From Candidatus Omnitrophota bacterium (GTDB taxonomy: Bacteria; Omnitrophota; Omnitrophia; Omnitrophales; JACROU01): a stretch of 64,000 bases of DNA. The stretch's first letter is position 1. Each line of letters opens with the position of its first letter. The position numbers and the translations under genes were made by a program. The DNA lies in assembly GCA_029261035.1 (NCBI GenBank), contig JAJDCD010000004.1, positions 132,765 through 196,764 of the forward strand. Direction: 5' to 3'. The notes under the pieces were generated by a model. That model was given only the letters and a program-made list of their open reading frames with translations, did no database searches and was not told the DNA's origin. This document shows, one piece after another, positions 14,576 to 64,000 of the stretch.

Positions 14576-14582
14576 GTCCTAA

Positions 14583-15506
14583 TTAAACCTCTTCAGGGTT
14601 TTCTTTATTCTCTTCTTCAGAAGGAGTTTCTTCTTTTGGCTCTTCAGGCATTTCAAACTTCGTATTCGCACTCCCAATAACATCTGTAATCTCCGCCAAA
14701 ACCTTATCTCTTTCTTCAGAGCTAGGGGTATCATCAACTTCTACAGCATCTTTGTTCTCTTCTTCAACAGGAGCTTGATCTTGAGTTTTCTGTTCCAACT
14801 CCAACTCTTCTTTGTTAATCATAGAAGCAACCAGCTCTTTAATTTCACTTATATTTGGCAAATCGTCCAAAGACTTTAATCCAAAATGTTCTAGAAATTT
14901 TTCTGTAGTTCCGTACAACATAGGTCTTCCTGCAATTTCTTTTTTTCCTACAATCTTAATTAAATTTCTATCCAACAATGTAGACAACACTCCAGAAACA
15001 TTAACCCCTCTTAACTCTTCTATTTCCACACGTGTAACCGGCTGTTTATAAGCCAAAATCGCCAAAGTCTCTAACGCAGATTGTGTTGCTTGCTTCTTCT
15101 TTTTCTCGAGCTCCAACTTCATAATCCAAGGAGCATATTGAGGATGAGTCGAAATTTCGTAACCACCCGCTAACTCTTGAACACGAAAACTCAATCCTTG
15201 CTCTATATAGTATTCCCCAAGCTCCTTTAATGCTTTTTGAAACTCAGAGGGTTTAAACCCCTTTACTACCTTTTTCATTTCTTTTAAAGGGACTGGCTTG
15301 TTCGAAACAAACAAAAGAGCTTCAATAATTCGCTTCATAGAATCAAAATCAACTTCTGATTTTTCTTCATAAGTCTCAACATGAGTTTCCGAAACATCTT
15401 CACCCGTTGGAAGTTGTTCTCTAATCTCCCCTTCAATCTCTTTTCTCAACTCTTTAAGTTCTTTTTCTTTCTCTTTTTGCTTTGCTTCCTTCACACTGTT
15501 TCCCAT
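14583..15506 (-). CDS. scpB: segregation and condensation protein B with acidic C-terminal extension
   Basis: Two winged-helix ScpB repeats (IIEALLFVSNKPV; LETLAILAYKQPVTRVEIEELRG). Confidence 0.8.
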   Translation of the reverse strand: MGNSVKEAKQKEKEKELKELRKEIEGEIREQLPTGEDVSETHVETYEEKSEVDFDSMKRIIEALLFVSNKPVPLKEMKKVVKGFKPSEFQKALKELGEYYIEQGLSFRVQELAGGYEISTHPQYAPWIMKLELEKKKKQATQSALETLAILAYKQPVTRVEIEELRGVNVSGVLSTLLDRNLIKIVGKKEIAGRPMLYGTTEKFLEHFGLKSLDDLPNISEIKELVASMINKEELELEQKTQDQAPVEEENKDAVEVDDTPSSEERDKVLAEITDVIGSANTKFEMPEEPKEETPSEEENKENPEEV

Positions 15507-17734: not shown

Positions 17735-18565
17735 CTAGAAGAAGGAAATAATGAGTGTGATAAAACCCACAAAAAAGCAGTAATAGGAAAATAAATAGAA
17801 ATTGCCTCGGATAACGATTCTTGAAAGGATCTTAATCGCCACCAAACCAACAACAAAAGCCACCAAAGCACCAATTATATAAAGAAAAATCTTATCTGTA
17901 GCAAATTGAGAAATGTCTTTTAATTTAAAGACAAAGGCACCTAAAATTGTAGGAATAGAAAGAATAAAGGAAAAGCGAAATGCCAAATCACGACTCAAAC
18001 CCAGCTTCAACCCTGTCGCAATCGTCATTCCAGAACGAGAAACACCGGGCAAAATTGAAATAGCTTGAGCAAGCCCAACAATAAAAGCATCTTTCATTGA
18101 AAGGTCGTTCAACGATTTTTCATTGTACGGAGAAACGCGAGTCAATAAAATAACCCCTCCTGTAAAGATAAGAGAAAGCCCCACAACCAAAAGAGAGTTA
18201 AAAGACTGCTCTATTTGATCCGAAAAATAAACTCCGACACAACCTGCTGGAATCACAGCTATCAAAGCATAAATGAATAATTTTAAATTTTGATTCCGAT
18301 ACATAATATCTTTTACTCGGTTTCCATCAAAAAGTTCACCAAAAGCACTAAGGCTATCGAAAAGGATGTTCAGAAGATCTCTATGGAAATAAACAATAAC
18401 AGACATTAAAGTTCCCATATGAAGCATAATATTCAATTCCAACTGAGCTCCTTCAAAACCCAAAATTTTCTCCATAATCACAAGATGCCCTGAACTAGAA
18501 ATAGGGAGAAACTCCGTAAATGCTTGAACAACAGCTAAAAATATAATTTGAATTAATTCGGTCAT
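17735..18565 (-). CDS. uppP: undecaprenyl-diphosphatase
   Basis: BacA/UppP N-terminal signature FTEFLPISSSGHL and eight predicted TM segments. Confidence 0.85.
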   Translation of the reverse strand: MTELIQIIFLAVVQAFTEFLPISSSGHLVIMEKILGFEGAQLELNIMLHMGTLMSVIVYFHRDLLNILFDSLSAFGELFDGNRVKDIMYRNQNLKLFIYALIAVIPAGCVGVYFSDQIEQSFNSLLVVGLSLIFTGGVILLTRVSPYNEKSLNDLSMKDAFIVGLAQAISILPGVSRSGMTIATGLKLGLSRDLAFRFSFILSIPTILGAFVFKLKDISQFATDKIFLYIIGALVAFVVGLVAIKILSRIVIRGNFYLFSYYCFFVGFITLIISFF

Positions 18566-19698: not shown

Positions 19699-19726
19699 CT
19701 CATTTGCCTTTTTCCCCGACCCAATT

Positions 19727-19811
19727 GTCATCCCCGACTTGATCGGGGATCTAGTGTCTTTTGCATTCAACTATCCAATGGATCCCGGATCATGTCCGGG
19801 ATGACAAACTA
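19727..19811. repeat. two adjacent REP-like hairpins in opposite orientation
   Basis: GTCATCCCCGACTTGATCGGGGATCTAG (19727-19754) and GGATCCCGGATCATGTCCGGGATGACAAACT (19781-19811). Confidence 0.6.
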
Positions 19812-27731: not shown

Positions 27732-27816
27732 GCTCAGAGATTGCTCTTCGCCGCGAGTTCACAAAAGTGACAATCACTTTTGTGCTGTCTGAGCGCCGGA
27801 GAGCAATCTCTGAGCG
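27732..27816 (+). repeat. nested-hairpin intergenic element, copy 1 (core CGCCGCGAGTT...CTGTCTGAGCGCC)
   Basis: Outer 17-bp inverted repeat GCTCAGAGATTGCTCTTCG/CGGAGAGCAATCTCTGAGC around the conserved core. Lies between gltX and the K-rich gene. Confidence 0.7.
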
Positions 27817-37028: not shown

Positions 37029-37175
37029 AAAACACCTCCTCCTTTTACGCTTAATAATTTATTTCGGATTCAAACCGCATTTCCGCACATGCGGAAATAC
37101 CTTCAACCAAAATAAATTAGGTGCTCGATGCACCTAATTTATTATCCCTCCACACCCCCTAAAGAAGTAAAGAAC

Positions 37176-37256
37176 CATGGAGTTACCCTCGCCGCGAGTT
37201 CACAAAAATCGCATTTCAATTTTTGTGCTGTCTGAGCGCCGAGGGTAACTCCATGG
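37176..37256 (+). repeat. nested-hairpin intergenic element, copy 3
   Basis: Outer stem CCATGGAGTTACCCTCG/CGAGGGTAACTCCATGG around the conserved core. Abuts the xseA stop. Two more unrelated hairpins fill 37078-37153. Confidence 0.7.
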
Positions 37257-37257
37257 T

Positions 37258-38553
37258 TCACAACAACCTCTTAACCTTCTCAACCCTCTTAACTTCCGAC
37301 TCCACAACCCCCTTACCCAACTGCGTCCTAATCATCTCCCCAACCTTCAACTGCCCAGCTTCCCTAACCGGCTTCATCTTCTCATCCACCGTAACACTAT
37401 ACCCTCTAGACAAAATCCCCAAAGGACTCAAAGCATCCAATTGGGCCAGTAATTTAGAAAATCCCGCTTTCTTTTGCAACAAAACATTACTCAACAAAGG
37501 AGTCATCTGAATTCGAGACAACTGAATTCTCTTATCCGATACCACACCCAAAAGATAATTCGACATCTGCCTCAAAAGCTCATCCAATCTCTGCCTTGCT
37601 TGTTCTACTAATCGCTCTGGTTGCGTCAGCGCATAACTCTCTTTCGCATTCGTGATTCTCTCTTTTAAATCTTCTAAAAGATTCTTAACAGCCAAAAGCA
37701 TTCTTTCTTTATTTTCTCTCAACTGCCCCAACAACTCATCTCGACTCGGAACCGCTATCTCAGCCGCTTGAGAAGGAGTCGCCGCTCTCTTATCCGCAAC
37801 AAAGTCACTGATCGTCACATCCACTTCATGGCCCACTGCAGAAATAATTGGAATTTCAGAATTAAAAATAGCACGCGCTACAACTTCTTCATTAAAAGCC
37901 CATAAATCTTCTAAACTTCCTCCTCCACGTCCCACAATCAAAACATCACATAACTTATGCTTATTCATCGACTCAATCGCTTCTACAATTTCTTCTCGAG
38001 CACCGTCCCCTTGCACTTTAACGGGGTATAATAAAATCGGTATCCCAGGGAACCTCCTCTGAGACACATTAATAATATCTCGAATAACAGCCCCTGTTGG
38101 AGACGTAATCACCCCAATTCTTTCCGGCAAAAATGGGATCTCTTTTTTATATTCTTCTTCAAACAAACCTTCATTCTTCAACTTTTCAATCAGCTGTCTC
38201 AAAGCCAGCTCTAAGGCCCCAACACCTTTCGGCTCTACTCTCTCAACAACAATCTGATAATTCCCACGCTTTTCATAAACAGTCACTTTCCCAAACACCA
38301 CAACCTGCAACCCATCTTTCATTTCAAAAGGAATTTTTGCGTTTACGTTTCTAAAAATAACTGCGGAAATTTGAGCTCCTTCATCTTTTAAACTCAAATA
38401 CATATGTCCAGAAGAATGGTGTACTAGATTAGATATTTCTCCCTCAATCCAAACAGAACCATACTGAGTTTCGAGAGAACGTCGAATTTGTCGGGTAATA
38501 TCTGAAATGGAATGGATTGTTTTTTGTTGCTCATCTTTTTCTAAATCAAGCAT
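37258..38553 (-). CDS. xseA: exodeoxyribonuclease VII large subunit
   Basis: 431 aa with an N-terminal OB fold and XseA catalytic region (VGRGGGSLEDLWAFN). Confidence 0.85.
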   Translation of the reverse strand: MLDLEKDEQQKTIHSISDITRQIRRSLETQYGSVWIEGEISNLVHHSSGHMYLSLKDEGAQISAVIFRNVNAKIPFEMKDGLQVVVFGKVTVYEKRGNYQIVVERVEPKGVGALELALRQLIEKLKNEGLFEEEYKKEIPFLPERIGVITSPTGAVIRDIINVSQRRFPGIPILLYPVKVQGDGAREEIVEAIESMNKHKLCDVLIVGRGGGSLEDLWAFNEEVVARAIFNSEIPIISAVGHEVDVTISDFVADKRAATPSQAAEIAVPSRDELLGQLRENKERMLLAVKNLLEDLKERITNAKESYALTQPERLVEQARQRLDELLRQMSNYLLGVVSDKRIQLSRIQMTPLLSNVLLQKKAGFSKLLAQLDALSPLGILSRGYSVTVDEKMKPVREAGQLKVGEMIRTQLGKGVVESEVKRVEKVKRLL

Positions 38554-39375: not shown

Positions 39376-39476
39376 AAGACTCCTCTTGTCCTGCTTATAG
39401 TTTATAGCTCTTGGCTTTTGGTTGAATTTATTATCAAAAAATGCTTTTACCAAAAGCTAAGAGCCAAAAACCATCC

Positions 39477-40106: not shown

Positions 40107-40213
40107 GTCATTGCGAGGCATTAGAAAGTCGAGCCGTGGCAATCTCAGATTAAGGGAAGAAAGGTCCGTCTCAAAACCAAGAGATTGCCGCAGCTCCTTT
40201 GTGGAAGCCTCTC
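40107..40213. repeat. nested inverted-repeat element (GTCATTGCGAGG...GCCGTGGCAAT / ATTGCCGC...CCTCTCAATGAC)
   Basis: Same architecture and end sequences as the element at 42987-43093. Confidence 0.6.
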
Positions 40214-40304: not shown

Positions 40305-42539
40305 ATGAGACATCTCCTTTTTGTTCTATTATTTTTAGTTATTTCTACCCCTTTTGCTGAGGCCAGCATTATCGGAGCATTAGAGAACGTAACTCGACAA
40401 ATTGAGTCCGGAGGTTCATCTAGTAACAACACCTCTTCATCCTCCAGCTCAAGACCTTCTAGCACCACAAATACCAACCCCTCACAATATGAAACTCAAT
40501 ACCCAACACTCATGCCTTCAGACGGAAGCAGTGGCTCTGTTATGTCTATCGATCCAACAACAGGCACAGTGACTCAAAGCTCTTTAAATCCTGATGGCTC
40601 CAGAACGGTAACCGAAACAAACGCGGATGGAAATACAACAGAAGAAGTAATCCCTGAAGATCAACCGGATAGTGCCTCTTCTCTAGATTCCGAAACCGGA
40701 ATCACAACTACTTCCGTTGAAAACCCAGATGGGTCTCGTACTGTTATTGAAACGGATGCCGAAGGCAACATCGTAAGTTCAACACGTGTCCCATCAACGC
40801 AAACAACATCTGCCTCTGCTACAGATCCTGACACAGGCATCACAACAACATCTACTCGAAACGCAGACGGATCTAGAACCGTCACACAAACAGACGCGGA
40901 TGGAAATGTTTTAAATACGCGGAATGAACCCGCTCGTGGTTCAGGAAGATCTTCTGCTTCTTCTACAAATACAGATACTGGCGTTACAACAACTTCAACT
41001 CGCAATGCCGATGGCTCTAGCACAGTTACAGAAACAGACTCTCAAGGTAATACCCTCAGTTCGCGCAACGAGCCCGCCCGAGGATCACGCCCAGACTCTG
41101 CATCCGCCACCGACACCCGTACAGGAAATACAACAACATCCACTCGAAACGCAGATGGCTCTCGCACCGTCACTCAAACAGACTCTCAAGGAAATACTCT
41201 TTCAACACGAACAGAACCTAATAGAAATTCAACACCTTCTTTTGCATCTTCAACCGATTCTAATACAGGAATTACAACAACTTCGACTCAAAATGCCGAT
41301 GGCTCTCGTACGGTCAATCAAACAGACTCTAATGGCAACCTTCTCAATTCTCGAAGAGAACCTGCTCGTGGCTCGAGTCCAAGCTCTGCTTCTTCAACGA
41401 ACACCGATACAGGAGTCACTACAACATCGACTCGCAATGCAAACGGCTCCCGTACGGTTACTGAAACGGACGAGCAAGGAAATACATTAAATACTAGGAA
41501 CGAGCCTGCTCGTGGTTCCCGTCCAACATCTGCATCTGCCACAGATACAAATACCGGAATCACAACAACGTCCACTCGCAATACAGACGGTTCGCGTACC
41601 GTTACCGAAACAGACGAGCAAGGAAATACCTTAAATACAAGAAACGAGCCTGCTCGTGGTTCCCGCCCTACTTCAGCTTCAGCAACGGATACGAATACAG
41701 GCATTACAACAACGTCCACACGCAATACGGACGGATCTCGTACCGTTACCGAAACAGACGAGCAAGGAAATACCTTAAGCACCCGAAACGAGCCTGCTCG
41801 TGGAACAACCCCCTCTTCTGCTTCTGCGACAAACCCAGACACAGGAATTACAACAACATCAACACGTAACCCGGATGGTTCTAGAACTGTGACTCAAACG
41901 GATAAAGATGGAAATGTGTTAAATACACGCAACGAACCCGCCAGAGGAACAGGAACATCCTCCGCCTCTTCAACAAATACCGATACAGGTGTCACAACGA
42001 CATCCACTCAAAACGCAGATGGGTCTCGTACGGTTACAGAAACAGATAAAGACGAAAATGTTCTAGGCTCTCGCAACGAACCCGTATCAGGTACAGCCCC
42101 CTCTTCGGTAACATCAACAGATATGCTGTCAGGAGCACAAACAACCTCTACTATGAATCCCGATAAAAGCAGAACCCTTATCTTAAAAGACAAAGATGGA
42201 AAAGTAATTTCGAAAGAAACTACATATGGGTCCACAGGAATCGTTTCTAAAGTAACTTATAATAAAGATGGAACAGCTTTATTTATTCAAAAGGATGGAA
42301 GAGGTAGAACACTGATGGAAAAATCCTTCGCAAAAGTGCTGCAACCTAAATTTAGAAATCAAGCCATTGATATTCTATTTAACGTATCTAGACCGCAGGT
42401 GTACTCCTTACCTGGTTTTGCCAGCGCTCCTGGTTATCCAGCAACTCCAGACAAAACGGTTATCAATAATTCTTTAGGAGAAAAGATACAAGAGTACGAA
42501 GGCCCTCCTCGCGATTATGATGGGTCCAATTACCAGTAG
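40305..42539 (+). CDS. secreted Ser/Thr-rich tandem-repeat surface protein (putative adhesin-like)
   Basis: Signal peptide MRHLLFVLLFLVISTPFAEA. About 11 tandem 48-aa units (SASATDTNTGITTTSTRNxDGSRTVTETDxQGNTLxTRNEPARGSRPx), then a non-repetitive C-terminal domain. Confidence 0.75.
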   Translation: MRHLLFVLLFLVISTPFAEASIIGALENVTRQIESGGSSSNNTSSSSSSRPSSTTNTNPSQYETQYPTLMPSDGSSGSVMSIDPTTGTVTQSSLNPDGSRTVTETNADGNTTEEVIPEDQPDSASSLDSETGITTTSVENPDGSRTVIETDAEGNIVSSTRVPSTQTTSASATDPDTGITTTSTRNADGSRTVTQTDADGNVLNTRNEPARGSGRSSASSTNTDTGVTTTSTRNADGSSTVTETDSQGNTLSSRNEPARGSRPDSASATDTRTGNTTTSTRNADGSRTVTQTDSQGNTLSTRTEPNRNSTPSFASSTDSNTGITTTSTQNADGSRTVNQTDSNGNLLNSRREPARGSSPSSASSTNTDTGVTTTSTRNANGSRTVTETDEQGNTLNTRNEPARGSRPTSASATDTNTGITTTSTRNTDGSRTVTETDEQGNTLNTRNEPARGSRPTSASATDTNTGITTTSTRNTDGSRTVTETDEQGNTLSTRNEPARGTTPSSASATNPDTGITTTSTRNPDGSRTVTQTDKDGNVLNTRNEPARGTGTSSASSTNTDTGVTTTSTQNADGSRTVTETDKDENVLGSRNEPVSGTAPSSVTSTDMLSGAQTTSTMNPDKSRTLILKDKDGKVISKETTYGSTGIVSKVTYNKDGTALFIQKDGRGRTLMEKSFAKVLQPKFRNQAIDILFNVSRPQVYSLPGFASAPGYPATPDKTVINNSLGEKIQEYEGPPRDYDGSNYQ
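40550..42140 (+). repeat. intragenic 144-bp tandem repeats (about 11 copies, near-identical in the centre)
   Basis: The three consecutive central units are nearly identical at the protein level and at the nucleotide level. Antisense ORFs in this span are frame artefacts of the repeats. Confidence 0.8.
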
Positions 42540-42544
42540 ATTAG

Positions 42545-43095
42545 AAGAAGATTTTGTCATCTCCTCCTTGATCCATTTGTCATCCCCGAATGCTTTAATC
42601 GGGGATCCAGTCAGACAAAACGATTAATTTAGAAATTAAATAAAGCACAAACACATGGATCCCCGCCTTCGCGGGGATGACAGAAAAGCGCGGGAAGATA
42701 CAAGAATAGGACGGTCCACCTCGAAATTATGATGGAAAATTTTATGGGTAGATTTACGCTTGTCATTATTTAATTCAAAGACCCTAGATTCCCGCCTACG
42801 CGGGAATGACAAACACTTTTATTCATTCTTGTCATCCTGAACTAGCGCCTGCCCGCCGTCTTGCCCGCCACGAAAAACGGCGGGTCCGCCAGCTTATTAG
42901 GAGGATTGGGCGGGAAGGATCTCAGACTCAGAGATTCTTCGTCGCAAAGCTCCTCAGAATGACAGCTGTGTAGAAATTTAAATCCGTCATTGCGAGGCTA
43001 AAACAAAAAGAGCCGTGGCAATTTCAGGTTTTTACTTCTTATTCATCCCGAGATTGCCACGGCTCAATATGTCGATACCTCGCAATGACAGTTTT
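42545..43095. repeat. cluster of REP-like palindromic elements (BIME-like) in the 580-bp intergenic region
   Basis: At least six hairpins with GTCATC/GATGAC-type ends: 42578-42610, 42656-42682, 42786-42812, 42830-42895, 42921-42965 and 42987-43093. Confidence 0.7.
42697..42751 (+). repeat. degenerate duplicate of the 3' end of the repeat-protein gene
   Basis: GATACAAGAATAGGACGGTCCACCTCGAAATTATGATGG..TAG closely matches the gene terminus GATACAAGAGTACGAAGGCCCTCCTCGCGATTATGATGG...TAG. Confidence 0.55.
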
Positions 43096-44089: not shown

Positions 44090-44140
44090 TCTATTTCCTC
44101 CCACTTTTTATGTATTACGAATTATATCTAAATCAGGATT

Positions 44141-44250
44141 TCCCCTCTCCCTTTTTAAGGGAGAGGGCTAGGGTGAGGGTTTGAGTTGATTTAGAATTTA
44201 CCATTAAACCACCCTCACCTTAATCCTCTCCCTCCAAAGGAAGGAGAGGA
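44141..44250. repeat. nested palindromes built from GGGAGAGG / GGTGAGGG motifs
   Basis: CCCTCTCCCTTTTTAAGGGAGAGGGCTAGGGTGAGGGT ... ACCCTCACCTTAATCCTCTCCCTCCAAAGGAAGGAGAGG. Confidence 0.5.
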
Positions 44251-44278
44251 AAATTCAAAGACATTCACTTGTCTGCCT

Positions 44279-52799: not shown

Positions 52800-52842
52800 A
52801 GATCGATAGCGCTATAATCTTTTCACTTTGGAGGAAGTAAAT
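52800..52842 (+). promoter_or_regulatory. putative promoter/RBS for the XRE regulator gene
   Basis: TATAAT at 52813-52818 and GGAGGAAG at 52830-52837 ahead of an in-frame TTG at 52843. Confidence 0.35.
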
Positions 52843-53391
52843 TTGGATATCGGTTTTCGCATTCGACAAGTTAGGAAAGAAAAAAACATCACTCTTGTTG
52901 AGCTTTCTAAATCAACAGATGTTGCTCAAGCCACTCTCTCTCGTATTGAAACTGGAGATATGACGGGGACTTTAGAGTGTCATAGTAAAGTTGCCAACTC
53001 TCTCGGTATGAGTTTGAGCGAACTTTATGAAGGTATCGATAACCGTTCTGCTAAAACCAAGATTACCAAAAATGGAACTGCCGAACTTCTTTCTAAAAGT
53101 ACGGATCAAATCCGCAGCGAAATTTTAACTTCAAAAGCTTTAAAGAAAAAACTCCTCCCTATCAAAACAACTCTTAAACCAAATTCAAAGTCCGAACCTG
53201 AAAAGGCTGAGAAAGCGACTGAGAAATTTGTTTATTGTACAGAAGGTCAAATCACGGTTTATCTCAATAATGAAGGTCATGATTTAGAAACGGAAGAAAG
53301 TATTTATTTTGATGGGTCTTTACCACACAGCTTCGAAAACAAAACCGCTAAGGTTGCAAAACTCATTAGCGTTACTTCTCCACCCGCGTAA
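52843..53391 (+). CDS. XRE-family HTH transcriptional regulator with C-terminal cupin domain
   Basis: N-terminal HTH_XRE (IGFRIRQVRKEKNITLVELSKSTDVAQATLSRIETG) and a C-terminal cupin-like region. Start is TTG at 52843 or 52828 (non-ATG). Confidence 0.65.
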   Translation: MDIGFRIRQVRKEKNITLVELSKSTDVAQATLSRIETGDMTGTLECHSKVANSLGMSLSELYEGIDNRSAKTKITKNGTAELLSKSTDQIRSEILTSKALKKKLLPIKTTLKPNSKSEPEKAEKATEKFVYCTEGQITVYLNNEGHDLETEESIYFDGSLPHSFENKTAKVAKLISVTSPPA

Positions 53392-54490: not shown

Positions 54491-54500
54491 TTTTTGGCCG

Positions 54501-54734
54501 CTATTTCGTTAATTGTATAGCAGCTGATGTCGCTGCTATCAGTATTAGAATTAAAAGGATTATGTATTTTCCTTTGTTTAGCTGGCGTTCTTGTTTTTTT
54601 AGCCAGCTTTTTACGATGGTTTGTTTTTTGTCGGAATACTCGCCTTTTGTTAGGCGGGCTTCGACTGCTTCTTTGCCTAGGAGTTTTAGGCTCTTTTCGA
54701 ATTCTTTCCAGTAGTGGGTATCTTCGTGTTCCAT
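54501..54734 (-). CDS. small tail-anchored membrane protein (hypothetical)
   Basis: 77 aa with a C-terminal TM helix IILLILILIAATSAAI. Co-directional with and immediately upstream of the GT gene. Other overlapping ORFs in 54436-54946 were rejected. Confidence 0.4.
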   Translation of the reverse strand: MEHEDTHYWKEFEKSLKLLGKEAVEARLTKGEYSDKKQTIVKSWLKKQERQLNKGKYIILLILILIAATSAAIQLTK

Positions 54735-54896
54735 GGTTATCCTCTTCGCTTTGCATGGGATTTAACGTTGGGGGTATTATACAGGAAGTGGGGGGATTTG
54801 GCACGAGTGGGGTGGTTGTTCGGTTCCCTTTGTCATCTTTGGCTTGGTTGGGGATCTGGGGGTTTTGGAGTGGTATACTTTTAGTAGAGGACGAAA

Positions 54897-55553
54897 ATGG
54901 GAAATACAATAAAAATCAAAAAACATCCTACAAAAAACAATCCTAATTATTTTTTAATAGATTCAGACTTTTTTGTTAATAGATACCTATCTAAACATTT
55001 GTCATATTTAAACCTAAACTCGGGAAATAGTGGTGAAGAATCAATAGAAAAAAGTGCTTTATGGTGGAATGAAATTAATTCTCAGCTAAAAAATGAAATA
55101 GCTTATCTATTTATTCCAAATGTTTGCATTTCAGAGACATTTAAAGTCCTAGCTAAAAGACAATACGACAAAGATGAAAAAATCATTAAGAAATATAAAT
55201 ATTACAAGGAGTTAATCGATGAAATTTCAGAAGATCTTCATGTCAACCCTAAACTTCCCGAAACACAGAAGAAAAAACAAAGAATTCATGACCTAGAAAC
55301 AAACCGTGATATTGTTATTGGAACAGATAGATTTTTAAGGTTAATAATGAAAAATGGTTATAAAACAATATCAACATTTGATTTAATGTTGCTAGTTCAT
55401 GGAAAGTTGCTTTTGAAACATTACAACTTTAATAAGAGAAATCTCTTTATTATTACAGGAGATAAAACGCTATACAATGCCTCTAAACCATTTCCTGATA
55501 TTCCACGAGTATGCTGTCCTAACATAAACTCATTTGATAGTTCATTCGATTAA
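54897..55553 (+). CDS. PIN-domain nuclease-like protein
   Basis: Acidic quartet in canonical PIN order: FLIDSDFF, ISETF, HDLETNRD, TFDLML and FIITGDKT (T-x-D). About 30% GC. Confidence 0.5.
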   Translation: MGNTIKIKKHPTKNNPNYFLIDSDFFVNRYLSKHLSYLNLNSGNSGEESIEKSALWWNEINSQLKNEIAYLFIPNVCISETFKVLAKRQYDKDEKIIKKYKYYKELIDEISEDLHVNPKLPETQKKKQRIHDLETNRDIVIGTDRFLRLIMKNGYKTISTFDLMLLVHGKLLLKHYNFNKRNLFIITGDKTLYNASKPFPDIPRVCCPNINSFDSSFD

Positions 55554-55643
55554 ACCCAACGCATTCAATTTTAAAGGTTTAATACCAAAATCGAATTCTA
55601 GATAGATTGGATACGTAGTTTACGAGCGTTAAAACAATAACTG

Positions 55644-58058
55644 CTAAAATGGTAAAGAAGATTTATTTTTAAGTAAATAATATTTTGCATGTGCAATCAA
55701 GAAAACCTTGTTTCTAAAGAAAAAGAACCTTTTTTCTCCTAACTTCTTTTTCAAAATCTTAACATCATCGAATGGTTTATCGGCCTTTTTATCATAACCT
55801 AGCATGTAACTCTTATTAAACAAAGTCTCTATTAGCTTCTCTTTTTTTAACTGATTAAACTTAAACTCTCTAAGAATCTTGATAAATTTCCTATACTCAA
55901 TCTGCTTACCATGATACTCTTGCAACCTTGTAAGAATTTCGGATATTTCTGGAAACTCAGCCCTTGTTTCTGCTATTAAATTATTATTCAAAAACTCTGT
56001 ATAACTTGTAATAGCATATTTTAAGTCCTTTCTATCTACTTTGTGATTGCCATTATTGATAGCAGACTCGAATAACTTTGCAACAAAATATATTAAGTCT
56101 CTTGGACGCTTCGTAATAATCTCCTGTATTATTTCAAAAGGGTGCCTTTTCTCTTTAAAGTTAAAAAATTCCCTCCATGCTTTTTTTTCTAACAATTCAC
56201 TGTCGGACTCATCCAATTTTAATATATGCGCAAATCTATTCTCAATTAACTTTTTTAATAGGCCCGGATAATCTTCCCAGTTTATATAGTGAGCCATAAG
56301 AACTAACTTATCAGGCTCTGCTACCTCGTTGCGAATATAGTTGAATATATCTTCTCTTAAAAAAATAATTTGTTTAACCTCAACCTGAGAATCTTTACTA
56401 AGTAATTCTTTTTGTATTTTATTTTCTATCTCTAATAAAGTACTCATCATCTCTGATTGTATTTTAAGATCATTTTTGGGATCCCAAGTCTTATCTAAAT
56501 TGTCTGCTAAAACAATCACTTTATAGTATTTTTTTCTAATTGATGTAAAGTAATTACGCAAACATGCAGTTAATGGCGAAAGGTATTCTTTAAAAAGAGT
56601 CTCCATGACCTCGGGACCGGAAATCTCCCTTGAATTTGTTCTTCTAACATTAACTTCTCGAACAACTCCAAAAAAGTTAAGCTTAGTGAACTCTTCATTT
56701 TTTTCTACAAAATTTATTATAGCTTCCTCCTCATCAGTCATTGTTACACTATTTTTTTCATCAAGTATACGCTCCACAATAGAAATAGCTAGTTTTGAAA
56801 AAATTACTAATTTCCACACAGCAACAAAAAAGCTTATTCTAGAAGAATCAAATAGTTTGGACAGCTGAATGTCATCAAGCAATTCATCAGACTCAGGTTT
56901 CAAACTAACAATATAATTATTTTTTTCTTCTGGCAAATCATCAGATAATTTGATGTAGATAGCAGATTTTCCACTACCTTTTCGCCCAACAACAATCGAC
57001 TTTTTATAATTTAATGCTTTTTGATATGAAGCAGTATTAACAAAATAACTTAAGAGTTCCCGACTCTCATTCTCTGCTATGTCACACCCAATACCCAACT
57101 CGATTAAATTTGTTTCATGTTCTATGATTTCACTCTTCTCTTGCGTTGTATCAAAAGCTAGTTGTTTGTCCAACCAAGGACTAATAAATTCCTTTATTTC
57201 ATCAGAAATTTCATAAGTAACCAAAATATCATGGTAATCTAAAGGTGGTTTGAACTTTGCAGGTGCAAGCAACAAAACATCACATCCCCATCCACAAGCA
57301 ACTCCAGCATAAAAAGCATTTTTTGCGTTTTCCATAAATGAATTTTGATAATTCTCTCCTAAAAGATGAATAAGAACCACTCTTGCCTTTAAAAGGTTCT
57401 GAAAATACCAAGTTAATGTTTGATATTTAATTTCAGATAAATCATCTGCAACAAGAGATAGTGACTTATTGTCTTTATAATCAATAATATGGTCCGTAAG
57501 CTCTATTGAATCTTGAGTTGCAAGTTTACTTTGAATATAAAATATGTCTGTACTTTTAGAGGTTAGATTTTTAAAATTCACAAACTTATTTAAAAGATTA
57601 TTTTCAAAGCTTTTTTGCTGAAGGGCTTTCTGGATACAATATGAATTTTTAAAAGGTATATAACGAATATCTTTTAGAATAAATTCTTTGTAAATCTTAT
57701 TGGGAAACCCAAGCTCATTATTAACACTAATATTTTCATTAATTAAGATTAGAATATATTTATTTTTTGCTATAGCATATCCAAGCTCAAACAAAACATT
57801 GTGATTAAAATACGTCAGATCACACACAAAAACTTCACTTCCGTCAATTGCTGAAAGGATTTCCTTACTAATTGTAGTTGTTTGTTTATATTCCTCCCAA
57901 CTTCTAGCTTTATAAGTTTTTTGGTGTTGATTAAAGGCTTCAATCGCCTTTTTAATTGATTCAACATTGTTATCAGCTAACCCATTAGAACGTCCTTGAT
58001 AAGCAAAAAATATTTTTTTTTGTGGTAATTCAGAATTTTTTGATACCATTATTACCAA
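55644..58058 (-). CDS. tandem NDT/TIR-like Rossmannoid domains fused to a P-loop NTPase (candidate defence/conflict protein)
   Basis: Residues about 15-110 KIFFAYQG...EVFVCDLTYFNHNVLFELGYAIAKNKYILIL (nucleoside 2-deoxyribosyltransferase-like FE(L/I)GYA motif). Second degenerate copy ...NAFYAGVACGWGCDVLLLAPAKF. Walker A VVGRKGSGKSAIYI and candidate Walker B YKVIVLADNLD. About 400 aa helical C-terminus. About 29% GC. Confidence 0.55.
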   Translation of the reverse strand: MVIMVSKNSELPQKKIFFAYQGRSNGLADNNVESIKKAIEAFNQHQKTYKARSWEEYKQTTTISKEILSAIDGSEVFVCDLTYFNHNVLFELGYAIAKNKYILILINENISVNNELGFPNKIYKEFILKDIRYIPFKNSYCIQKALQQKSFENNLLNKFVNFKNLTSKSTDIFYIQSKLATQDSIELTDHIIDYKDNKSLSLVADDLSEIKYQTLTWYFQNLLKARVVLIHLLGENYQNSFMENAKNAFYAGVACGWGCDVLLLAPAKFKPPLDYHDILVTYEISDEIKEFISPWLDKQLAFDTTQEKSEIIEHETNLIELGIGCDIAENESRELLSYFVNTASYQKALNYKKSIVVGRKGSGKSAIYIKLSDDLPEEKNNYIVSLKPESDELLDDIQLSKLFDSSRISFFVAVWKLVIFSKLAISIVERILDEKNSVTMTDEEEAIINFVEKNEEFTKLNFFGVVREVNVRRTNSREISGPEVMETLFKEYLSPLTACLRNYFTSIRKKYYKVIVLADNLDKTWDPKNDLKIQSEMMSTLLEIENKIQKELLSKDSQVEVKQIIFLREDIFNYIRNEVAEPDKLVLMAHYINWEDYPGLLKKLIENRFAHILKLDESDSELLEKKAWREFFNFKEKRHPFEIIQEIITKRPRDLIYFVAKLFESAINNGNHKVDRKDLKYAITSYTEFLNNNLIAETRAEFPEISEILTRLQEYHGKQIEYRKFIKILREFKFNQLKKEKLIETLFNKSYMLGYDKKADKPFDDVKILKKKLGEKRFFFFRNKVFLIAHAKYYLLKNKSSLPF

Positions 58059-58233
58059 TCTCCATTAATAAATTATTTTTACAGTCCTTCAGTTGTTGCA
58101 GCCTCTGGGCTCAGTTGTTGAATGTTAAAAAAACATTCACTAAACTTTTAACTTATAACTCTCTATTCCTTTTATATTCTTAGAAATAAATTTTGTCAAG
58201 GAATCAAGTTTTTCTGAGGGTATTTTCAAGCCT

Positions 58234-58260
58234 GGATTCCCACCTTCACGGGAATGACAA
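58234..58260 (+). repeat. REP-like hairpin (GGATTCCCACCTTCACGGGAATGACAA)
   Basis: Family member with the CCTGGATTCCC lead-in. Confidence 0.55.
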
Positions 58261-58330
58261 TTGTCTTGGATTCAGTCGTTAAATATCTAATTATACCTCT
58301 TCCCCCTCCTAAGTACGTTATAATTGGGTT

Positions 58331-59941
58331 ATGAAGAGCTACCGTTTCTTATTCACCCTTCTTTTACTCTACCCCTTTCTCATTCTCACCCTTTCTGCTT
58401 TTCGGCCGGGGCCTGTGAACTCTCCTTTTGTGGAATATCAGGAGCCGGAGTTTTTGACTTATGAGGAGCTTCAGGAGTTGAGTCGGAATCCGGAGCCAAA
58501 TCGGAAGTTGAAGGCTAAGCTTGAGCGATTTTGGAAGACCCCTATTATTAGTAATGAGGCTTATATTCAAGGGATGATGCCTGCTGTGAAGAAAAATCGG
58601 CGTTTGGGCACCTTTATGCGAGTTGCGAGTTGGAATATTGAGAAGTCTCTTAATATTCCAGATGCGATTACTGTGTTTACTTCTCCTGAAAAATTTAAGG
58701 GTTTGATTAACACAGATATTCCTGTGGGTTCTACGGATTATGAATATATTCTTTTGCAGCAAAAACGGTTGATGACTTCGGATGTTGTGATCTTGCAGGA
58801 AATGGATATCGGGGTTAAACGATCGGGTTATAGGAATGCGACTGCCGATTTAGCCAAGGCGATGAATATGAATTACGCCTATGGGCCAGAACAGTTGGAA
58901 GTGGATCCTGTGATTCTGAGTCTTGAGAGTTTAAAGTTTGAAGATGATCGTTTGGATGAGGAAGCTACAAAATACTTTAGAGCCGACCCTGAGAAAGTGA
59001 AAGGGGTTTTTGGGAGTGCTGTTTTGTCTAAGTACCCTATCAAGTCTGCAGAGGTGTTTCAGTTAGAGACTCAGACTTATGATTGGTACTCCGGAGAGAT
59101 AAAGAAAACTACGTTTCTTGAGAAAGGGCGAAGAACGGGTTCGAAGACTGTTTTTAAGAATGAGTTGACGCGTGAGGTTAAGGTTGGCGGGCGAATTTTT
59201 TTTAGAGTGGATTTGTATGTGCCTGAGCTTCCGAATGAGACGTTGACGGTGATTAATGTGCATCTTGAGATTAAGTGTACGCCTAAAGGGCGTGAAATGC
59301 AGATGAAAGAGATTTTGAGTTATATTAAGGATATTAAGAATCCGGTGATTTTGGCTGGGGATTTTAATTCTGCCCCTACCGATTTGAGTCCGACGTCGGT
59401 GACTCGGGTTGTGAAACGGACGGCAAAGAATCCGACGACTTGGCTTTCTGTTGGGATTAATTATTTTACGGCTGAGGGGGCTACGATTAACACTTCCCGC
59501 TTTCTTTCTAATGCGACGAAGAATTTTCAAAATCCTTTGGCGAAGCATATTCCGATTGTGGCTCCGAATGCCGTTAAGGGGTTGTTTGATCGGGTTGAGT
59601 ATTTTCGGTTTAAGGATGATGGGGTTTTTGATTTTCGTGGGAATGGTGAAAGGTCGATGAATGGGAAGGATAAGAAGTTGGCTAATTCGAATGAGAGGGA
59701 TTTGATTGGGTTTAAGACGACGTTTCGTGTGAGACGGCCTATTGGGTTTATTGGGAAGTATCGATTGGATTGGATTTTTGTGAAATCGTTTTTGAAGGAT
59801 GGGAACGATGATTTTGGGTCGTATCGGTTTGCTCCGCATTTTGGGGAGACGCTTGAGGAGATGAATACGAGTTTGGTGAGAGCGGTTTCGGATCATCATC
59901 CGAATGTGGTGGATTTGCCTTTTGAGGAGCCGGGGGTTTAG
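58331..59941 (+). CDS. secreted endonuclease/exonuclease/phosphatase (EEP) family protein
   Basis: Signal peptide and EEP motifs: VASWNIE, ILQEMD, VINVHLE, AGDFNS and SDHHP. GC-rich and G+T-rich coding strand. Antisense ORFs 58364-58762 and 59063-60043 rejected. Confidence 0.65.
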   Translation: MKSYRFLFTLLLLYPFLILTLSAFRPGPVNSPFVEYQEPEFLTYEELQELSRNPEPNRKLKAKLERFWKTPIISNEAYIQGMMPAVKKNRRLGTFMRVASWNIEKSLNIPDAITVFTSPEKFKGLINTDIPVGSTDYEYILLQQKRLMTSDVVILQEMDIGVKRSGYRNATADLAKAMNMNYAYGPEQLEVDPVILSLESLKFEDDRLDEEATKYFRADPEKVKGVFGSAVLSKYPIKSAEVFQLETQTYDWYSGEIKKTTFLEKGRRTGSKTVFKNELTREVKVGGRIFFRVDLYVPELPNETLTVINVHLEIKCTPKGREMQMKEILSYIKDIKNPVILAGDFNSAPTDLSPTSVTRVVKRTAKNPTTWLSVGINYFTAEGATINTSRFLSNATKNFQNPLAKHIPIVAPNAVKGLFDRVEYFRFKDDGVFDFRGNGERSMNGKDKKLANSNERDLIGFKTTFRVRRPIGFIGKYRLDWIFVKSFLKDGNDDFGSYRFAPHFGETLEEMNTSLVRAVSDHHPNVVDLPFEEPGV

Positions 59942-59956
59942 GGAGTAATCGATTGT

Positions 59957-60033
59957 CATTCTGAGGGATTTGGCAAATGCGCCGAAGAATCTTTTTGTCA
60001 GAGATCCTTCACTGCGTTCAGGATGACAGGGGG
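59957..60033 (+). repeat. two-hairpin intergenic element, copy B
   Basis: GTCATTCTGAGG...GAAGAATCT...AGATCCTTCACTGCGTTCAGGATGACA, matching copy A at 49063-49136. Confidence 0.65.
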
Positions 60034-60040
60034 TTATATG

Positions 60041-60220
60041 CACCAGTCTTTGGTCTGCTGGGTTTTCAGTATTAGCAATTTTAAAGATTTTGGGAATATA
60101 TGTACCCGTCTTGGGTCTGCTGGATTTCGAGTATTAGCAATTTTAAAACTTTTGGGAGTATACGCACCCGTCTGGGTCTGCTTGGATGTGTTGTATTAAC
60201 AATTTTAAAGATGTTGATCC
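60041..60220 (+). repeat. three tandem direct repeats of about 62 bp
   Basis: Units at 60041-60104, 60105-60166 and 60167-60220 share CCCGTCTTGGGTCTGCTGG..GTATTAGCAATTTTAAA..TTTTGGGAGTATA at about 80% identity. There are no unique spacers between them. Confidence 0.8.
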
Positions 60221-60399
60221 CATGGGGATTCGGCGCCCTCTGTTCGTTACTTGCTGGTCGCAAGCACTCACTCCGGGTCGGCCACTCGCTTCTCATAAAG
60301 AATTCAACAAATAAAGACCTGACATTGGGTCAGTTCTCTATTTATTTCATCGTGATGTATTTGTCGGCGCTCACTTTGAATTCCCAAGGGAATTCAAAC

Positions 60400-60438
60400 A
60401 TAAAAAAGGCCCAGCTGGTTTTTCAGCTGGGCTTTTTT
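60400..60438 (-). terminator. bidirectional Rho-independent terminator directly 3' of tRNA-Glu
   Basis: GCCCAGCTG-GTTTTT-CAGCTGGGC hairpin with a T8 run on the plus strand and A/T-rich flank on the minus strand. An adjacent perfect palindrome TTGAATTCCC-AA-GGGAATTCAA lies at 60369-60390. Confidence 0.65.
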
Positions 60439-60439
60439 T

Positions 60440-60517
60440 TGGCGTCCCCAAGGGGATTCGAACCCCTGTCGCCAGAATGAAAATCTGGTGTCCTAGGCCT
60501 GACTAGACGATGGGGAC
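60440..60517 (-). tRNA. tRNA-Glu (anticodon TTC)
   Basis: GTCCCCATCGTCTAGTCAGGCCTAGGACACCAGATTTTCATTCTGGCGACAGGGGTTCGAATCCCCTTGGGGACGCCA closely resembles bacterial tRNA-Glu. CCA is encoded. Confidence 0.85.
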
Positions 60518-60581
60518 GCAATTTGTTTGTGCAAAAGAGGGCAAATTATAAACTAATGCTGGGGTTATGTAAATAGCCATT

Positions 60582-61268: not shown

Positions 61269-61751
61269 TTAGTTACTTTGCTTGTCTGCTTCTTCTTTGA
61301 TCATGATGTTCCACTCTTCCCTTTTAACACGAAGAAGATCACCTAAGGTGTGTTCGTAAGCTTTGTCTTCTGTTGATATCGGCAAGTTACGGAACTCGGA
61401 GTCACAGATGTAACATACTTTGAGGAATTGAAGTTTTTTGTAAAGAATCCAATCGATGAAAGCTGCTACGGCTAAACTAAGACCATAAGTCCAAATGCTG
61501 AGAATGGCTCCTGCAATAAAGATGAGGAGGCCTAGCATTTTGTTGAAATCTTTCACCAAGTAAAAGTCATCGTAACCGCATAAGTGGCATTGAAATTTTT
61601 CTGCTTTTGGGTCTGAGACGAATTTAATTTTGTATTCGCAGTTTCCGCACTGGGTTCCCTCGTTAGGATCATCTACGACCACTTCGTTTTTATATTCACA
61701 AGCAGGACAATAATAACGGAAAATTAAGTCTTCATTTTTTTCTTGGCTCAT
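61269..61751 (-). CDS. zinc-ribbon membrane protein (hypothetical)
   Basis: Start moved to the MSQEK Met. Two CxxC pairs (CPACEY...CGNCEY; CHLCGY) followed by TM helices. Confidence 0.4.
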   Translation of the reverse strand: MSQEKNEDLIFRYYCPACEYKNEVVVDDPNEGTQCGNCEYKIKFVSDPKAEKFQCHLCGYDDFYLVKDFNKMLGLLIFIAGAILSIWTYGLSLAVAAFIDWILYKKLQFLKVCYICDSEFRNLPISTEDKAYEHTLGDLLRVKREEWNIMIKEEADKQSN

Positions 61752-62590
61752 AATGGAAATCCTATCGCTTGAAAGATGTAGTCTGCAAAAAGTTCTCCTA
61801 TAAATACAAAAATACAGGCGACATACAAAATACCTGTCGCCGCTTGATTCGAACGAAGTTTTGCTGTTTCTAAAATCATAAAAGATAAAATCAACGGTCC
61901 TAAAATCCCCCACACCACTCTCATGATGAAAAAGAGACCCAACTCGTTAAAAGACACTGCCCGTAACGGCAACGCATGTGCTTGAGGCCCCAGAAAGAAG
62001 TAGAACATCACAAAGAAAAGAATCAGACTCGCACCACGAATGATAGAAGAGGTTACCAAAGTTTTAGAGGCGTTAATCAAGTAACGAAATGGCAAATTAG
62101 GGGTTACTAAATACCAGTGCCCTAAGATCATCGTTCCGTAACTCCAACCCAACAGAACTGACCCCAACAGCAAAGATGTTCCGCCTAATATTTGAGCAAT
62201 AATAGATAGCTCCCCACTGACACCCATCATCCCTCTAGAAAATACAGTGGCAATCCCAGCAAGTACCGCCACAAACAAAAGGACGCGCGTCATCGTAAAA
62301 GCTTTAAATAAAACAAACAGATAAGAAAGTAAGAACACAGACATAACGATAATCAGCATAGTTTGAAATGTTGGATAATATAATTCAAACACAGCTGAGT
62401 TTGGCGCATTAGGATAGTTCTGTAAATAGTTTCTGAAAAGAAACAAGGAAAACAAAAGAAAGGAAAATGCAAAGAACCCATTGAGCAAATAAAAATTATG
62501 CTTTAATTGTTTGAGAGGCATAAATAACATAAACAATAATATGCCCACACCAAATTGTAAAAAAAACAAACTTGCTATTTGAGATAACAT
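61748..62590 (-). CDS. polytopic integral membrane protein (hypothetical)
   Basis: 280 aa with about 8 hydrophobic helices and no catalytic motifs. Confidence 0.45.
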   Translation of the reverse strand: MLSQIASLFFLQFGVGILLFMLFMPLKQLKHNFYLLNGFFAFSFLLFSLFLFRNYLQNYPNAPNSAVFELYYPTFQTMLIIVMSVFLLSYLFVLFKAFTMTRVLLFVAVLAGIATVFSRGMMGVSGELSIIAQILGGTSLLLGSVLLGWSYGTMILGHWYLVTPNLPFRYLINASKTLVTSSIIRGASLILFFVMFYFFLGPQAHALPLRAVSFNELGLFFIMRVVWGILGPLILSFMILETAKLRSNQAATGILYVACIFVFIGELFADYIFQAIGFPL

Positions 62591-62605
62591 GGGACTTCCT
62601 TTCGG

Positions 62606-62726
62606 TGACTGTCATTGGCCTGCTTTTAGCAGAGCACAGTGACTGTCACCCAAAACTCATTTTAATCACGGTTCAATAATAGTGACAGTCACTTTGCTCT
62701 GCGGTACGCAGGCAAGTGACAGTCAC
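62606..62726. promoter_or_regulatory. array of four GTGAC(A/T)GTCAC palindromes (putative operator sites / large hairpin)
   Basis: Copies at 62606, 62639, 62682 and 62716. Copies 2 and 3 sit inside a longer inverted repeat (GCAGAGCACAGTGACTGTCAC / GTGACAGTCACTTTGCTCTGC). The array lies between the pepA stop and the start of the membrane-protein gene. Confidence 0.55.
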
Positions 62727-64000
62727 TATTTCCAATCTTTAAGTAATTGGCACAGAAGACGAACGCCGGCTCCGGTTGCCCCTACAGGAGTGTATGGATT
62801 TGGACTGTCGGCCCATGCAACACCCGCAATATCTAAATGAACCCAAGGATAATCTGCAACAAAATGTTGCAAGAACTTCCCTGCTGTAATCGTTCCCGCT
62901 AAACCAGAACTTACATTTTGAATGTCACAATATTTACTTTTAATCAGGTCATCATAGTCATCCCACATAGGAAGTTCCCATGTACGCTCACCCGAATCGG
63001 TACCTGCTTTAGTTACCTTAGAACCTAGTTTTGCATTATTAGTCATTAACCCCATGCATTTATCACCAAAAGTGTAAACACACATTCCGGTTAATGTGGC
63101 TAGATCAATAATTGCGTCCGGCTTAAATTTTTGAGCATAGGCTAAAGCATCCGCCAAAATCAAACGTCCTTCAGCATCCGTATTAATTACTTCGATTGTT
63201 TTATTATTGGAAGCCGTAACAATGTCTCCAGGTCTCTGTGCGTTATGGCCTGGCATATTTTCAACACAAGGGGTTATCCCAATGATATGGATCGGTAAAT
63301 TCATTTTACTGATCGCTTTCATGGTTCCGATTACTGCTGCAGCTCCCATCATATCGAATTTCATTTTTTCCATATCTTTTGAGGGTTTAATCGAAATACC
63401 ACCGGTATCGAACGTAACTCCCTTACCCACTAAACAAATGGTCTTCTTCGCATTTTTGGGTTTCTTCTCAAGCACAATCAGGTTTGGTTTATTGATACTG
63501 CCCTGAGCAACACCCAAAAGAGCTCCCATTTTCATTTTCTTGAGATCTGCTTCTTTAAAGACTTTGCAAGTAAGACCCTCTTTCTTTGCCATAGCTTGCG
63601 CTTCTTTTGCTACTTGATCTGGAGTCATCACGTTTGCAGGTTCATTGCCCAGATCTCGAGTAACACACATTGCGTCCGCAACAATAGCTCCATATTCTTT
63701 TCCTTTTTCAGAAAGTTTTTTCTCCCCTGCTTTATCTACAACGTAATCAATCTCTTCTAGAAGAAGTTTTTTGTTCTTAGATTTATCCGAATAATATTTT
63801 CCAAACTTATACTGAGACAGCACCAAAGATTCTGTAATCGATTGAGCAACCCGTTCTATAGACAACCCTTTTCCAGCAAAACTAGGAAGGTAGATCGCAA
63901 CTCTTCTTGTTTTTATTGTTTTAAGCTTTGCAAGTAACCCGGCTACATTTGCCGCCAAACTATGAGCATCCAGTTTCGCTTTACTACCTAAACCTACAAA
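62726..64000 (-). CDS. pepA: leucyl aminopeptidase (M17), N-terminus beyond window end
   Basis: M17 catalytic signature NTDAEGRLILADAL. The reading frame stays open to the window edge. Confidence 0.85.
   Translation of the reverse strand, partial: FVGLGSKAKLDAHSLAANVAGLLAKLKTIKTRRVAIYLPSFAGKGLSIERVAQSITESLVLSQYKFGKYYSDKSKNKKLLLEEIDYVVDKAGEKKLSEKGKEYGAIVADAMCVTRDLGNEPANVMTPDQVAKEAQAMAKKEGLTCKVFKEADLKKMKMGALLGVAQGSINKPNLIVLEKKPKNAKKTICLVGKGVTFDTGGISIKPSKDMEKMKFDMMGAAAVIGTMKAISKMNLPIHIIGITPCVENMPGHNAQRPGDIVTASNNKTIEVINTDAEGRLILADALAYAQKFKPDAIIDLATLTGMCVYTFGDKCMGLMTNNAKLGSKVTKAGTDSGERTWELPMWDDYDDLIKSKYCDIQNVSSGLAGTITAGKFLQHFVADYPWVHLDIAGVAWADSPNPYTPVGATGAGVRLLCQLLKDWK

Follow-up and report, generated by a model that had tools for sequence, protein, structure and literature searches.

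The spacer between pepA and the gene of a polytopic membrane protein carries four short palindromes in a row, and the question raised by this locus is whether they are operators of a dimeric repressor, as first proposed, or the parts of a repetitive element. Within the window, that is, the whole 64,000-nucleotide stretch of DNA that was analysed, the exact 11-mer GTGACNGTCAC (GTGACWGTCAC) occurs three times, at 62639, 62682 and 62716, and nowhere else, and 100 dinucleotide-preserving shuffles of the window contained no exact copy. When one mismatch was allowed, GTGACTGTCAT at 62605 and an unrelated site at 27767 were added, giving five matches observed versus 0.51 expected. The recurrence described in the initial annotation is confirmed, with three exact copies and one bearing a single mismatch, the first copy beginning at 62605 and not at 62606; the start-to-start distances of the four sites are 34, 43 and 34 nt. 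All genes at the locus lie on the minus strand, the stop codon of pepA (TAG) being at 62726-62728 and the ATG of the membrane-protein gene at 62590-62588. The array does lie between these two genes, although the spacer has 135 bp and not the 130 bp first given. As seen below, the palindromes are very probably a REP/REPIN-type element, inserted in this lineage only between co-transcribed genes, instead of a repressor operator array. The features of the locus are as follows.

62729-64000, minus strand: 3' part of pepA (M17 leucyl aminopeptidase; Pfam Peptidase_M17, 1.5e-124), the upstream gene, which leaves the window
62726-62728, minus strand: stop codon TAG of pepA, of which the element provides the G (comparison with five relatives)
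62605-62726, no strand: whole element, a nested palindrome of 122 bp, REPIN-like doublet of two REP units (inverted-repeat search, folds, absence in relatives)
62682-62726, no strand: right REP unit, made of a core copy, a 23-nt inner hairpin (62693-62715) and a core copy
62716-62726, no strand: core copy 4, GTGACAGTCAC, whose last base is the third base of the pepA stop codon
62682-62692, no strand: core copy 3, GTGACAGTCAC (exact pattern search)
62650-62681, no strand: AT-rich 32-nt spacer, the apical loop of the long hairpin, containing the -10-like TAAAAT
62605-62649, no strand: left REP unit, made of a core copy, a 23-nt inner hairpin (62616-62638) and a core copy
62639-62649, no strand: core copy 2, GTGACTGTCAC (exact pattern search)
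62605-62615, no strand: core copy 1, GTGACTGTCAT, with one mismatch (mismatch search and inverted-repeat search)
62595-62603, minus strand: Shine-Dalgarno region GAAAGGAAG of the membrane-protein gene, outside the stem
61748-62590, minus strand: polytopic membrane protein of 280 aa, the downstream gene, with no Pfam or NCBIfam family

The longer inverted repeat that had been recognized around the two middle palindromes exists and reaches further than claimed, as the inverted-repeat search returned arms of 45 nt each (62605-62649 and 62682-62726), 84% complementary and separated by 32 nt. Each 45-nt unit is also a hairpin on its own, bounded by two copies of the 11-mer, and the inner inverted repeat of the right unit has 17-nt arms that are 94% complementary; the inner stems begin with TT or TG, their loops have 3 and 5 nt, and a CCA tail is not consistently present. 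Aligning the left unit with the reverse complement of the right one, no gap is needed (GTGACTGTCAY-TKGCCTGC-loop-GCAGAGCAMA-GTGACTGTCAC), and both an asymmetric bulge and the central T of the two cores match between the arms when these are read on opposite strands. Therefore, the element is an inverted duplication of one unit, and its ends read GTGACTG... and ...CAGTCAC.

Regarding its folding, the coding-strand RNA forms one long hairpin (-71.5 kcal/mol; z -8.65 versus shuffles), and the single-stranded DNA reaches -38.3 kcal/mol (z -8.48 versus shuffles). The Shine-Dalgarno sequence GAAAGGAAG begins 1 nt 3' of the hairpin foot, is not sequestered, and is homologous to the GAGGAAG of the closest relative. 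After the 5' unit the RNA reads UAUUAUU, and after the whole hairpin CCGAAAGG; a terminator scan flagged no canonical intrinsic terminator, with hairpin and U tract, inside the element. Rfam holds no family for the element, giving only sub-threshold, microRNA-like noise there, and at the gathering threshold it recognizes in the window only four tRNAs.

The history of the junction was addressed by comparing it with five distinct relatives, probably from Omnitrophota (L123/124, L125/126, L127/128, L129 and L130), of which L123 is the closest, being 85% identical in PPDK and extensively syntenic to the window. In all five, pepA is followed in turn by the genes of the membrane protein, the zinc-ribbon protein and nth, as in the window, where the membrane-protein gene is followed by an overlapping zinc-ribbon gene and nth. 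The membrane-protein homologs are 50-55% identical, and the single named one comes from Candidatus Omnitrophica, so that the window, too, probably stems from Omnitrophota. In every relative, only 1-21 nt separate the TAA of pepA from the next start codon, compared with the 135-bp spacer of the window, and the element was not found at any of these five orthologous junctions; therefore, the 122-bp block is a lineage-specific insertion. Moreover, pepA ends with ...TGGAA(A/G)TAA in the five relatives and with TAG in the window, where ...TGGAAATA is followed by the 122-bp element and then by CGAAAGGAAGTCCC and the ATG. The first G of the element converts the ancestral TAA to TAG, and site 4 overlaps the stop codon by this one base. 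No target-site duplication is seen at the borders of the element, which are flanked by GGAAATA and CGAAAGG. As no promoter fits into a gap of 1 nt, the downstream genes were ancestrally co-transcribed with pepA, and probably also translationally coupled to it.

The architecture of this insertion is the one known from REP (repetitive extragenic palindrome) elements. Two inverted 45-nt REP units with a 32-nt spacer form the layout of a REPIN or of a BIME, which is a REP cluster, a REPIN being defined as an inverted REP doublet that forms one hairpin (PMC3337134). Published traits of REPs and REPINs include inverted doublets, spacers of 20-100 bp and variable presence among relatives (PMC3337134, PMC3733652, PMC2817692). 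REPs are extragenic and typically lie between unidirectional or convergent ORFs (PMC3733652), and those between unidirectional genes lie close against the 3' end of the preceding ORF, often supplying its TAG (Di Nocera et al. 2013, PMC3733652). The element fits this location, between two minus-strand genes and with a one-base overlap with the pepA stop. An earlier fallback proposal, in which the large hairpin would be the pepA terminator and the outer palindromes REP-like, is essentially right about the hairpin and the REP-like copies; a canonical pepA terminator was not detected, and the restriction to the outer copies does not hold, as all four palindromes are REP material.

The same core is used at other intergenic positions of Omnitrophota. 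In L123, a core doublet hairpin at 14902-14944, built as AAATAAATG-core-GTAAA-core-CATTTATT, lies between a comEA-like gene and glyQ, a spacer where the window has a plain terminator and L127 both a terminator and a cluster of GTAG-type REPs. The latter cluster (14449-14588) consists of GTAG-headed REPs (CGTAGTAGCGA-loop-TCGCT) in alternating orientation, and this spacer holds three different hairpin elements in three related genomes. Three metagenome contigs retrieved by DNA pattern alone (L245, L320 and L337) carry the unit AAAG-core-GCYYTTT-core-CTTT, single or clustered, in most intergenic spacers between housekeeping genes, with 33 core sites in 12.5 kb of L245. As for their origin, the AtpD of L337 is 93% identical to a protein named Candidatus Omnitrophota by NCBI, and its named top matches all belong to that phylum.

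The atp operon of these contigs allows a comparison between closer genomes. Matching junctions in L320 and L337 have 150-212 nt with three or four hairpin repeats, and in the relative L383, with 90.5% identity in AtpA and 93% in AtpD, they measure about 7, 6 and 0 nt. The atp repeats represent the same event as the insertion in the window, here between much closer relatives. Presence and absence thus differ among relatives at three places, namely the pepA junction, the comEA-glyQ spacer and the atp-operon junctions.

The exact skeleton of the 45-nt unit gave no match in the JGI metagenome collection, and beyond the 11-mer and its R..Y flanks no convincing sequence similarity of the element to other families was found; a CAGAGCA flank common to the element and one L245 repeat was considered as extended homology and rejected, being within chance given about 800 sites. 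At least 120 metagenome loci have three core sites in a row, many of them ordinary tandem repeats, and some are probably coding, because GTG ACT GTC AC translates to Val-Thr-Val-Thr and the repeat periods are divisible by three; taken as a count, this number is uninformative. In the genome collection, the matches listed for core pairs include repeats from Chloroflexota and other phyla, and none of those listed belongs to the organism of the window. In a Caldilineaceae chromosome (OZ243888.1; L021, L026, L048, L051 and L066), at least 10 scattered copies of an element about 100 nt long, conserved from end to end and bearing the 11-mer near both of its ends, represent a MITE-like use of the core in Chloroflexota. 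A literature search for the 11-mer and other repeat cores returned only primers and shRNAs, and no paper linking Omnitrophota to REPs was found.

The association that defines REP elements is that of a RAYT gene flanked by its repeat (PMC2817692). In the Omnitrophota MAG L384 (GCA_030650425.1), a different short dyad, GGAAACWGTTTCC, fills the atpG-atpD junction (9886-10001), and in the segment 20700-21401 arrays of this dyad flank both sides of a RAYT gene, whose 160-aa product matches Pfam Y1_Tnp and the NCBIfam family NF047646, "REP-associated tyrosine transposase", with 80.5 bits for a cut-off of 80. The dyad has the ACWGT centre in common with the core of the window. When this RAYT was compared by tblastn with all loci retrieved by DNA pattern, 16 homologs were obtained, 12-13 of which have clusters of GTGACNGTCAC on either side of the gene, within 40-300 nt of it, and none inside it. 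NF047646 is the best family for all 10 of the RAYT proteins tested, five of which score above its curated cut-off. The extended consensus near these genes is R-core-Y, to which the three perfect copies of the window conform, and the succession of core, inner hairpin and core that makes up the window unit is also seen in some RAYT-flanking repeats, such as those of L329. By eye, the RAYT-flanking units are direct, not inverted, in the two loci L329 and L306. Within the 64-kb window, tblastn detected no RAYT homolog.

According to their records, the hosts of these transposases include Chloroflexota, Bacteroidota and Fibrobacteria, and the core-flanked RAYTs form at least four groups with a mutual identity of only 21-34%. 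Groups can be recognized in L323, L330, L250, L329 and L068, in L018, L342 and L004, and in L306 and L097, and they are as distant from each other as from the L384 enzyme, which uses a different repeat. A broader proposal, which we regard as tentative and rather doubtful, is that a single REP core, (R)GTGACWGTCAC(Y), is used by at least four groups of RAYTs across Chloroflexota, Bacteroidota, Fibrobacteria and Omnitrophota, besides being an iteron of phage initiator genes. If true, the shared core would imply either that HUH-type single-strand DNA enzymes have an ancient, conserved recognition code in common or that pairs of REP and RAYT have moved repeatedly between phyla; for Omnitrophota, it would further imply that the junctions of essential operons, atp among them, are regularly invaded by repeats of this kind. 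The link between core and RAYT across phyla, if upheld, bears on substrate recognition by RAYTs and on whether the inheritance of REP-RAYT systems is solely vertical.

RAYTs are single-strand DNA transposases resembling those of IS200/IS605. By analogy with known IS200/IS605-type enzymes and REPINs, the element would have arrived through RAYT-type single-strand transposition, or by spreading from a neighbouring REP cluster, and would now be a passenger in the operon. Due to its position inside the operon, it is most likely transcribed, and its transcript would fold into one imperfect hairpin of about 45 bp or into two hairpins of about 20 bp. Such a structure may break the ancestral translational coupling, shield the pepA mRNA from 3' exonucleases, and lower or uncouple the expression of the distal genes through partial termination or RNase III cleavage, while the Shine-Dalgarno sequence would stay free. 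The REP between malE and malF of E. coli and the Correia elements processed by RNase III offer parallels for this stabilisation and uncoupling of mRNA. Should the element have a regulatory effect, its most probable source is the hairpin in the RNA of the operon, and transcription of the downstream operon most likely still starts upstream of pepA. The element may be an old, ageing relic, with which the limited complementarity of its arms (84%), the restriction of the core to one locus in the 64-kb window and the lack of a RAYT there are compatible.

The alternative that survives best, and still an improbable one, is that an intercistronic RNA element (a terminator, attenuator, RNase III site or mRNA stabiliser) evolved locally under selection and was not derived from a mobile element. 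The great stability of the RNA hairpin agrees with such an origin, as do its place between the gene of an abundant cytosolic enzyme and those of membrane proteins, the UAUUAUU tail after the 5' hairpin, and the case of L123, in which the core doublet hairpin is followed by CACCTTTTTATT where the window has an ordinary terminator. However, the building block is an 11-mer repeated genome-wide in other Omnitrophota and found at the flanks of RAYT genes, no canonical terminator was flagged inside, and the element is unique to its lineage. A local RNA role can nevertheless be reconciled with the REP explanation if it is a secondary effect and does not account for how the element arose.

The operator array initially favoured, in which a dimeric repressor on the four dyads would control a promoter of the membrane-protein, zinc-ribbon and nth genes, is very unlikely. 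The sites are perfect 5+1+5 dyads, as suits a dimer, and proteins that read the 11-mer exist, because phage contigs have pairs of it as protein-binding iterons in initiator genes. On the coding strand of the element, the promoter scan gave a single weak sigma-70-like match (CTGTCA, 18 nt, TAAAAT; 9 of 12 positions), with the -35 inside site 3, and site 2 would then fall just past the transcription start. Nevertheless, a conserved operator would be present in the relatives, and the five orthologous junctions all lack the element; the genes there are evidently co-transcribed, with 1-21 nt between them and no space for a promoter, so that the operator reading fails on conservation. Complementarity between sites is superfluous for operators, and it is precisely the sequence between the sites that is complementary here; moreover, there is no second locus in the 64 kb, and the absence of any further exact site there does not point to a regulon. 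No regulator is encoded next to the element, and in other Omnitrophota the core saturates unrelated intergenic spacers and operon junctions. A HTH-cupin gene at 52828-53391 was considered as the binding protein and set aside, since it is conserved in relatives without the sites.

It is just as improbable that the element is a DDE-type MITE. Its 122 bp, long inverted ends, AT-rich centre and insertion behaviour would agree with one, and the Chloroflexota repeats, with the core near both ends of elements of about 100 nt, point in the same direction. Yet the inverted ends come without a target-site duplication, each arm is a hairpin of two core copies, as in REPs, and in the loci examined the core goes with RAYT genes and not with DDE transposases.

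Least credible of all is that the sites are iterons, as the 11-mer is in phage genomes, and belong to a replication origin or a partition site. Of 10 phage loci tested, 7 have pairs of the 11-mer inside replication-initiator genes, and in viral contigs such pairs exceed those of four control palindromes 4-10 times (a half-site-swapped palindrome being about as common there as the 11-mer). However, no initiator or partition gene lies near the element, its flanking genes are conserved chromosomal neighbours, and GC skew and gene orientation do not change at it. pepA and the conserved genes upstream of it remain in minus orientation, and a GC-skew irregularity at 54-62 kb, taken as a candidate replication origin, was rejected, as it coincides with an insertion of about 6 kb and with plus-strand genes. 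In the viral loci (L132, L138, L144, L154, L157, L176 and L178), the GTGACWGTCAC pairs are inside O-like, replisome organizer and DnaD-like initiator genes, with many additional GTGAC or GTCAC half-sites nearby, presumably as origin iterons. An integron attC site was also rejected: the terminal core sites of attC are RYYYAAC and GTTRRRY, which the ends GTGACTG.../...CAGTCAC do not fit, and the flanking genes are conserved neighbours and not cassettes.

Other repeats of the window deserve description in their own right. At 19725-19807, there is a canonical TGTC-tagged REP dimer with outward heads, an 8-bp stem (ATCCCSGA), a 5-nt loop and a CCA or CTA tail; this repeat also occurs twice in L123 (8114-8153 and 15912-15951), and in a GC-rich soil contig (L248) and an alphaproteobacterial MAG (L032), which represent unrelated phyla. 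A family of two copies (27732-27815 and 37172-37259) has an identical inner core (CGGCGCTCAGACAGCACAAAA ... TTTTGTGAACTCGCGGCG) within outer stems of 16 and 19 bp that are wholly unlike each other but pair perfectly. The apical loops also differ between the copies, and at its apex the first one has AAGTGACAATCACTT, one mismatch from the core of the window. With an RNA fold of -55 kcal/mol (z -7.35) and no Rfam match, this family could consist of structured RNA or single-strand DNA elements, or of repeats that enter hairpins already present. Modules of CGTCATTGCGAGG and GAGCCGTGGCAATCTC make up another family at 40131-40196 and 42980-43095, also present in L123 (12044-12096 and 12273-12326); the copies of the window bracket the only long plus-strand ORF of the region (40305-42539, 744 aa), which has no Pfam, NCBIfam or PADLOC family and a local GC of 0.46 versus about 0.38. 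Large intergenic nested palindromes are found at 39397-39474 and 44139-44252 and in L123 at 18158-18234, the AGCTCTTGGCTTTT type being common to the window and L123 and the other being a doublet of CCCTCTCCC hairpins beside a tRNA-Arg. Consequently, as the window holds several elements of REP type, the genome appears to be populated by them, that of 62605-62726 being one.

The insertion of about 6 kb mentioned above (~54500-60520) is missing in L123 and L127, where nth and a GT4 glycosyltransferase gene are 300-680 nt apart. This segment abuts a tRNA-Glu (60440-60517), has a GC content down to 0.305 and a reversed GC skew, and encodes an 804-aa Sll1717-family P-loop ATPase (210 bits) with a weakly TIR/nucleoside-deoxyribosyltransferase-like N-terminus, an endonuclease/exonuclease/phosphatase protein and ORFs without family. 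It is probably a small integrated island, possibly related to defence.

With the palindromes read as a REP/REPIN-type insertion, there is no repressor regulon to chase at this locus, and a false lead is removed. The catalogue of REPs and RAYTs gains a family with a very short, perfectly symmetric core, placed in Omnitrophota, a candidate phylum with small genomes. In addition, repeats inside tightly coupled operons are natural test cases for the effects of hairpin insertion on polycistronic expression.

Among the known systems that use similar sites, the origin iterons in the lambda-O-like initiator genes of phages are pairs of exactly GTGACWGTCAC; the element, however, is neither in nor beside a replication gene, and its complementary spacers form hairpins. 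The matS sites are, to our knowledge, confined to enterobacteria and their relatives. Those of the E. coli terminus, bound by MatP (consensus GTGACRNYGTCAC, PMC6907758), have half-sites GTGAC and GTCAC identical to those of the element but three central bases, compared to one in the core, and they are single sites over hundreds of kilobases, compared to four within 122 bp. On both grounds, an identity with MatP/matS was rejected.

Correia elements, co-transcribed MITEs of Neisseria, have 26-bp terminal repeats and a TA target duplication, and their transcripts form long hairpins that can be cut by RNase III, altering the expression of neighbouring genes. The element of the window resembles them in its size class of about 100-150 bp, its inverted repeats and its intergenic or intercistronic insertion, and differs from them in the absence of a target duplication and in having arms that are composite hairpins.

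The REPs of the CGTC type have an unpaired tag, a stem of 8-9 bp starting with AT, a loop of 4-5 nt and a CCA tail (PMC3733652). With the CGTC- and TGTC-tagged REPs described there, the element shares a core that contains TGTC, dimers that fold separately or as one large stem-loop, and spacers in the range of 20-100 bp, but its TGTC is paired in the stem, its stems do not start with AT, and it has no CCA tail. Membership in the GTAG- or CGTC-tagged REP superfamily was rejected, as the tag is not unpaired, the stems start with TT or TG and the CCA tail is not consistent.

Closest in organization are the REPINs, REPs and BIMEs of P. fluorescens SBW25 and E. coli (PMC3337134, PMC3116915, PMC2817692). 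The core of the window differs from these by being a perfect 11-bp dyad with an A/T centre and without the unpaired GTAG head, and its unit by having two core copies that bracket a 23-nt inner hairpin. The element is present at a single locus in the 64 kb, with no RAYT in the window, and the core arrays at the flanks of RAYT genes are direct in the cases inspected (L329 and L306), unlike the classical RAYT flanks. Despite these differences, as in REPINs and BIMEs, inverted palindromic units and a spacer form one long hairpin, which is extragenic, lies between genes of the same direction and directly follows the upstream stop codon; its presence varies among related genomes, and its core flanks RAYT genes in other genomes.
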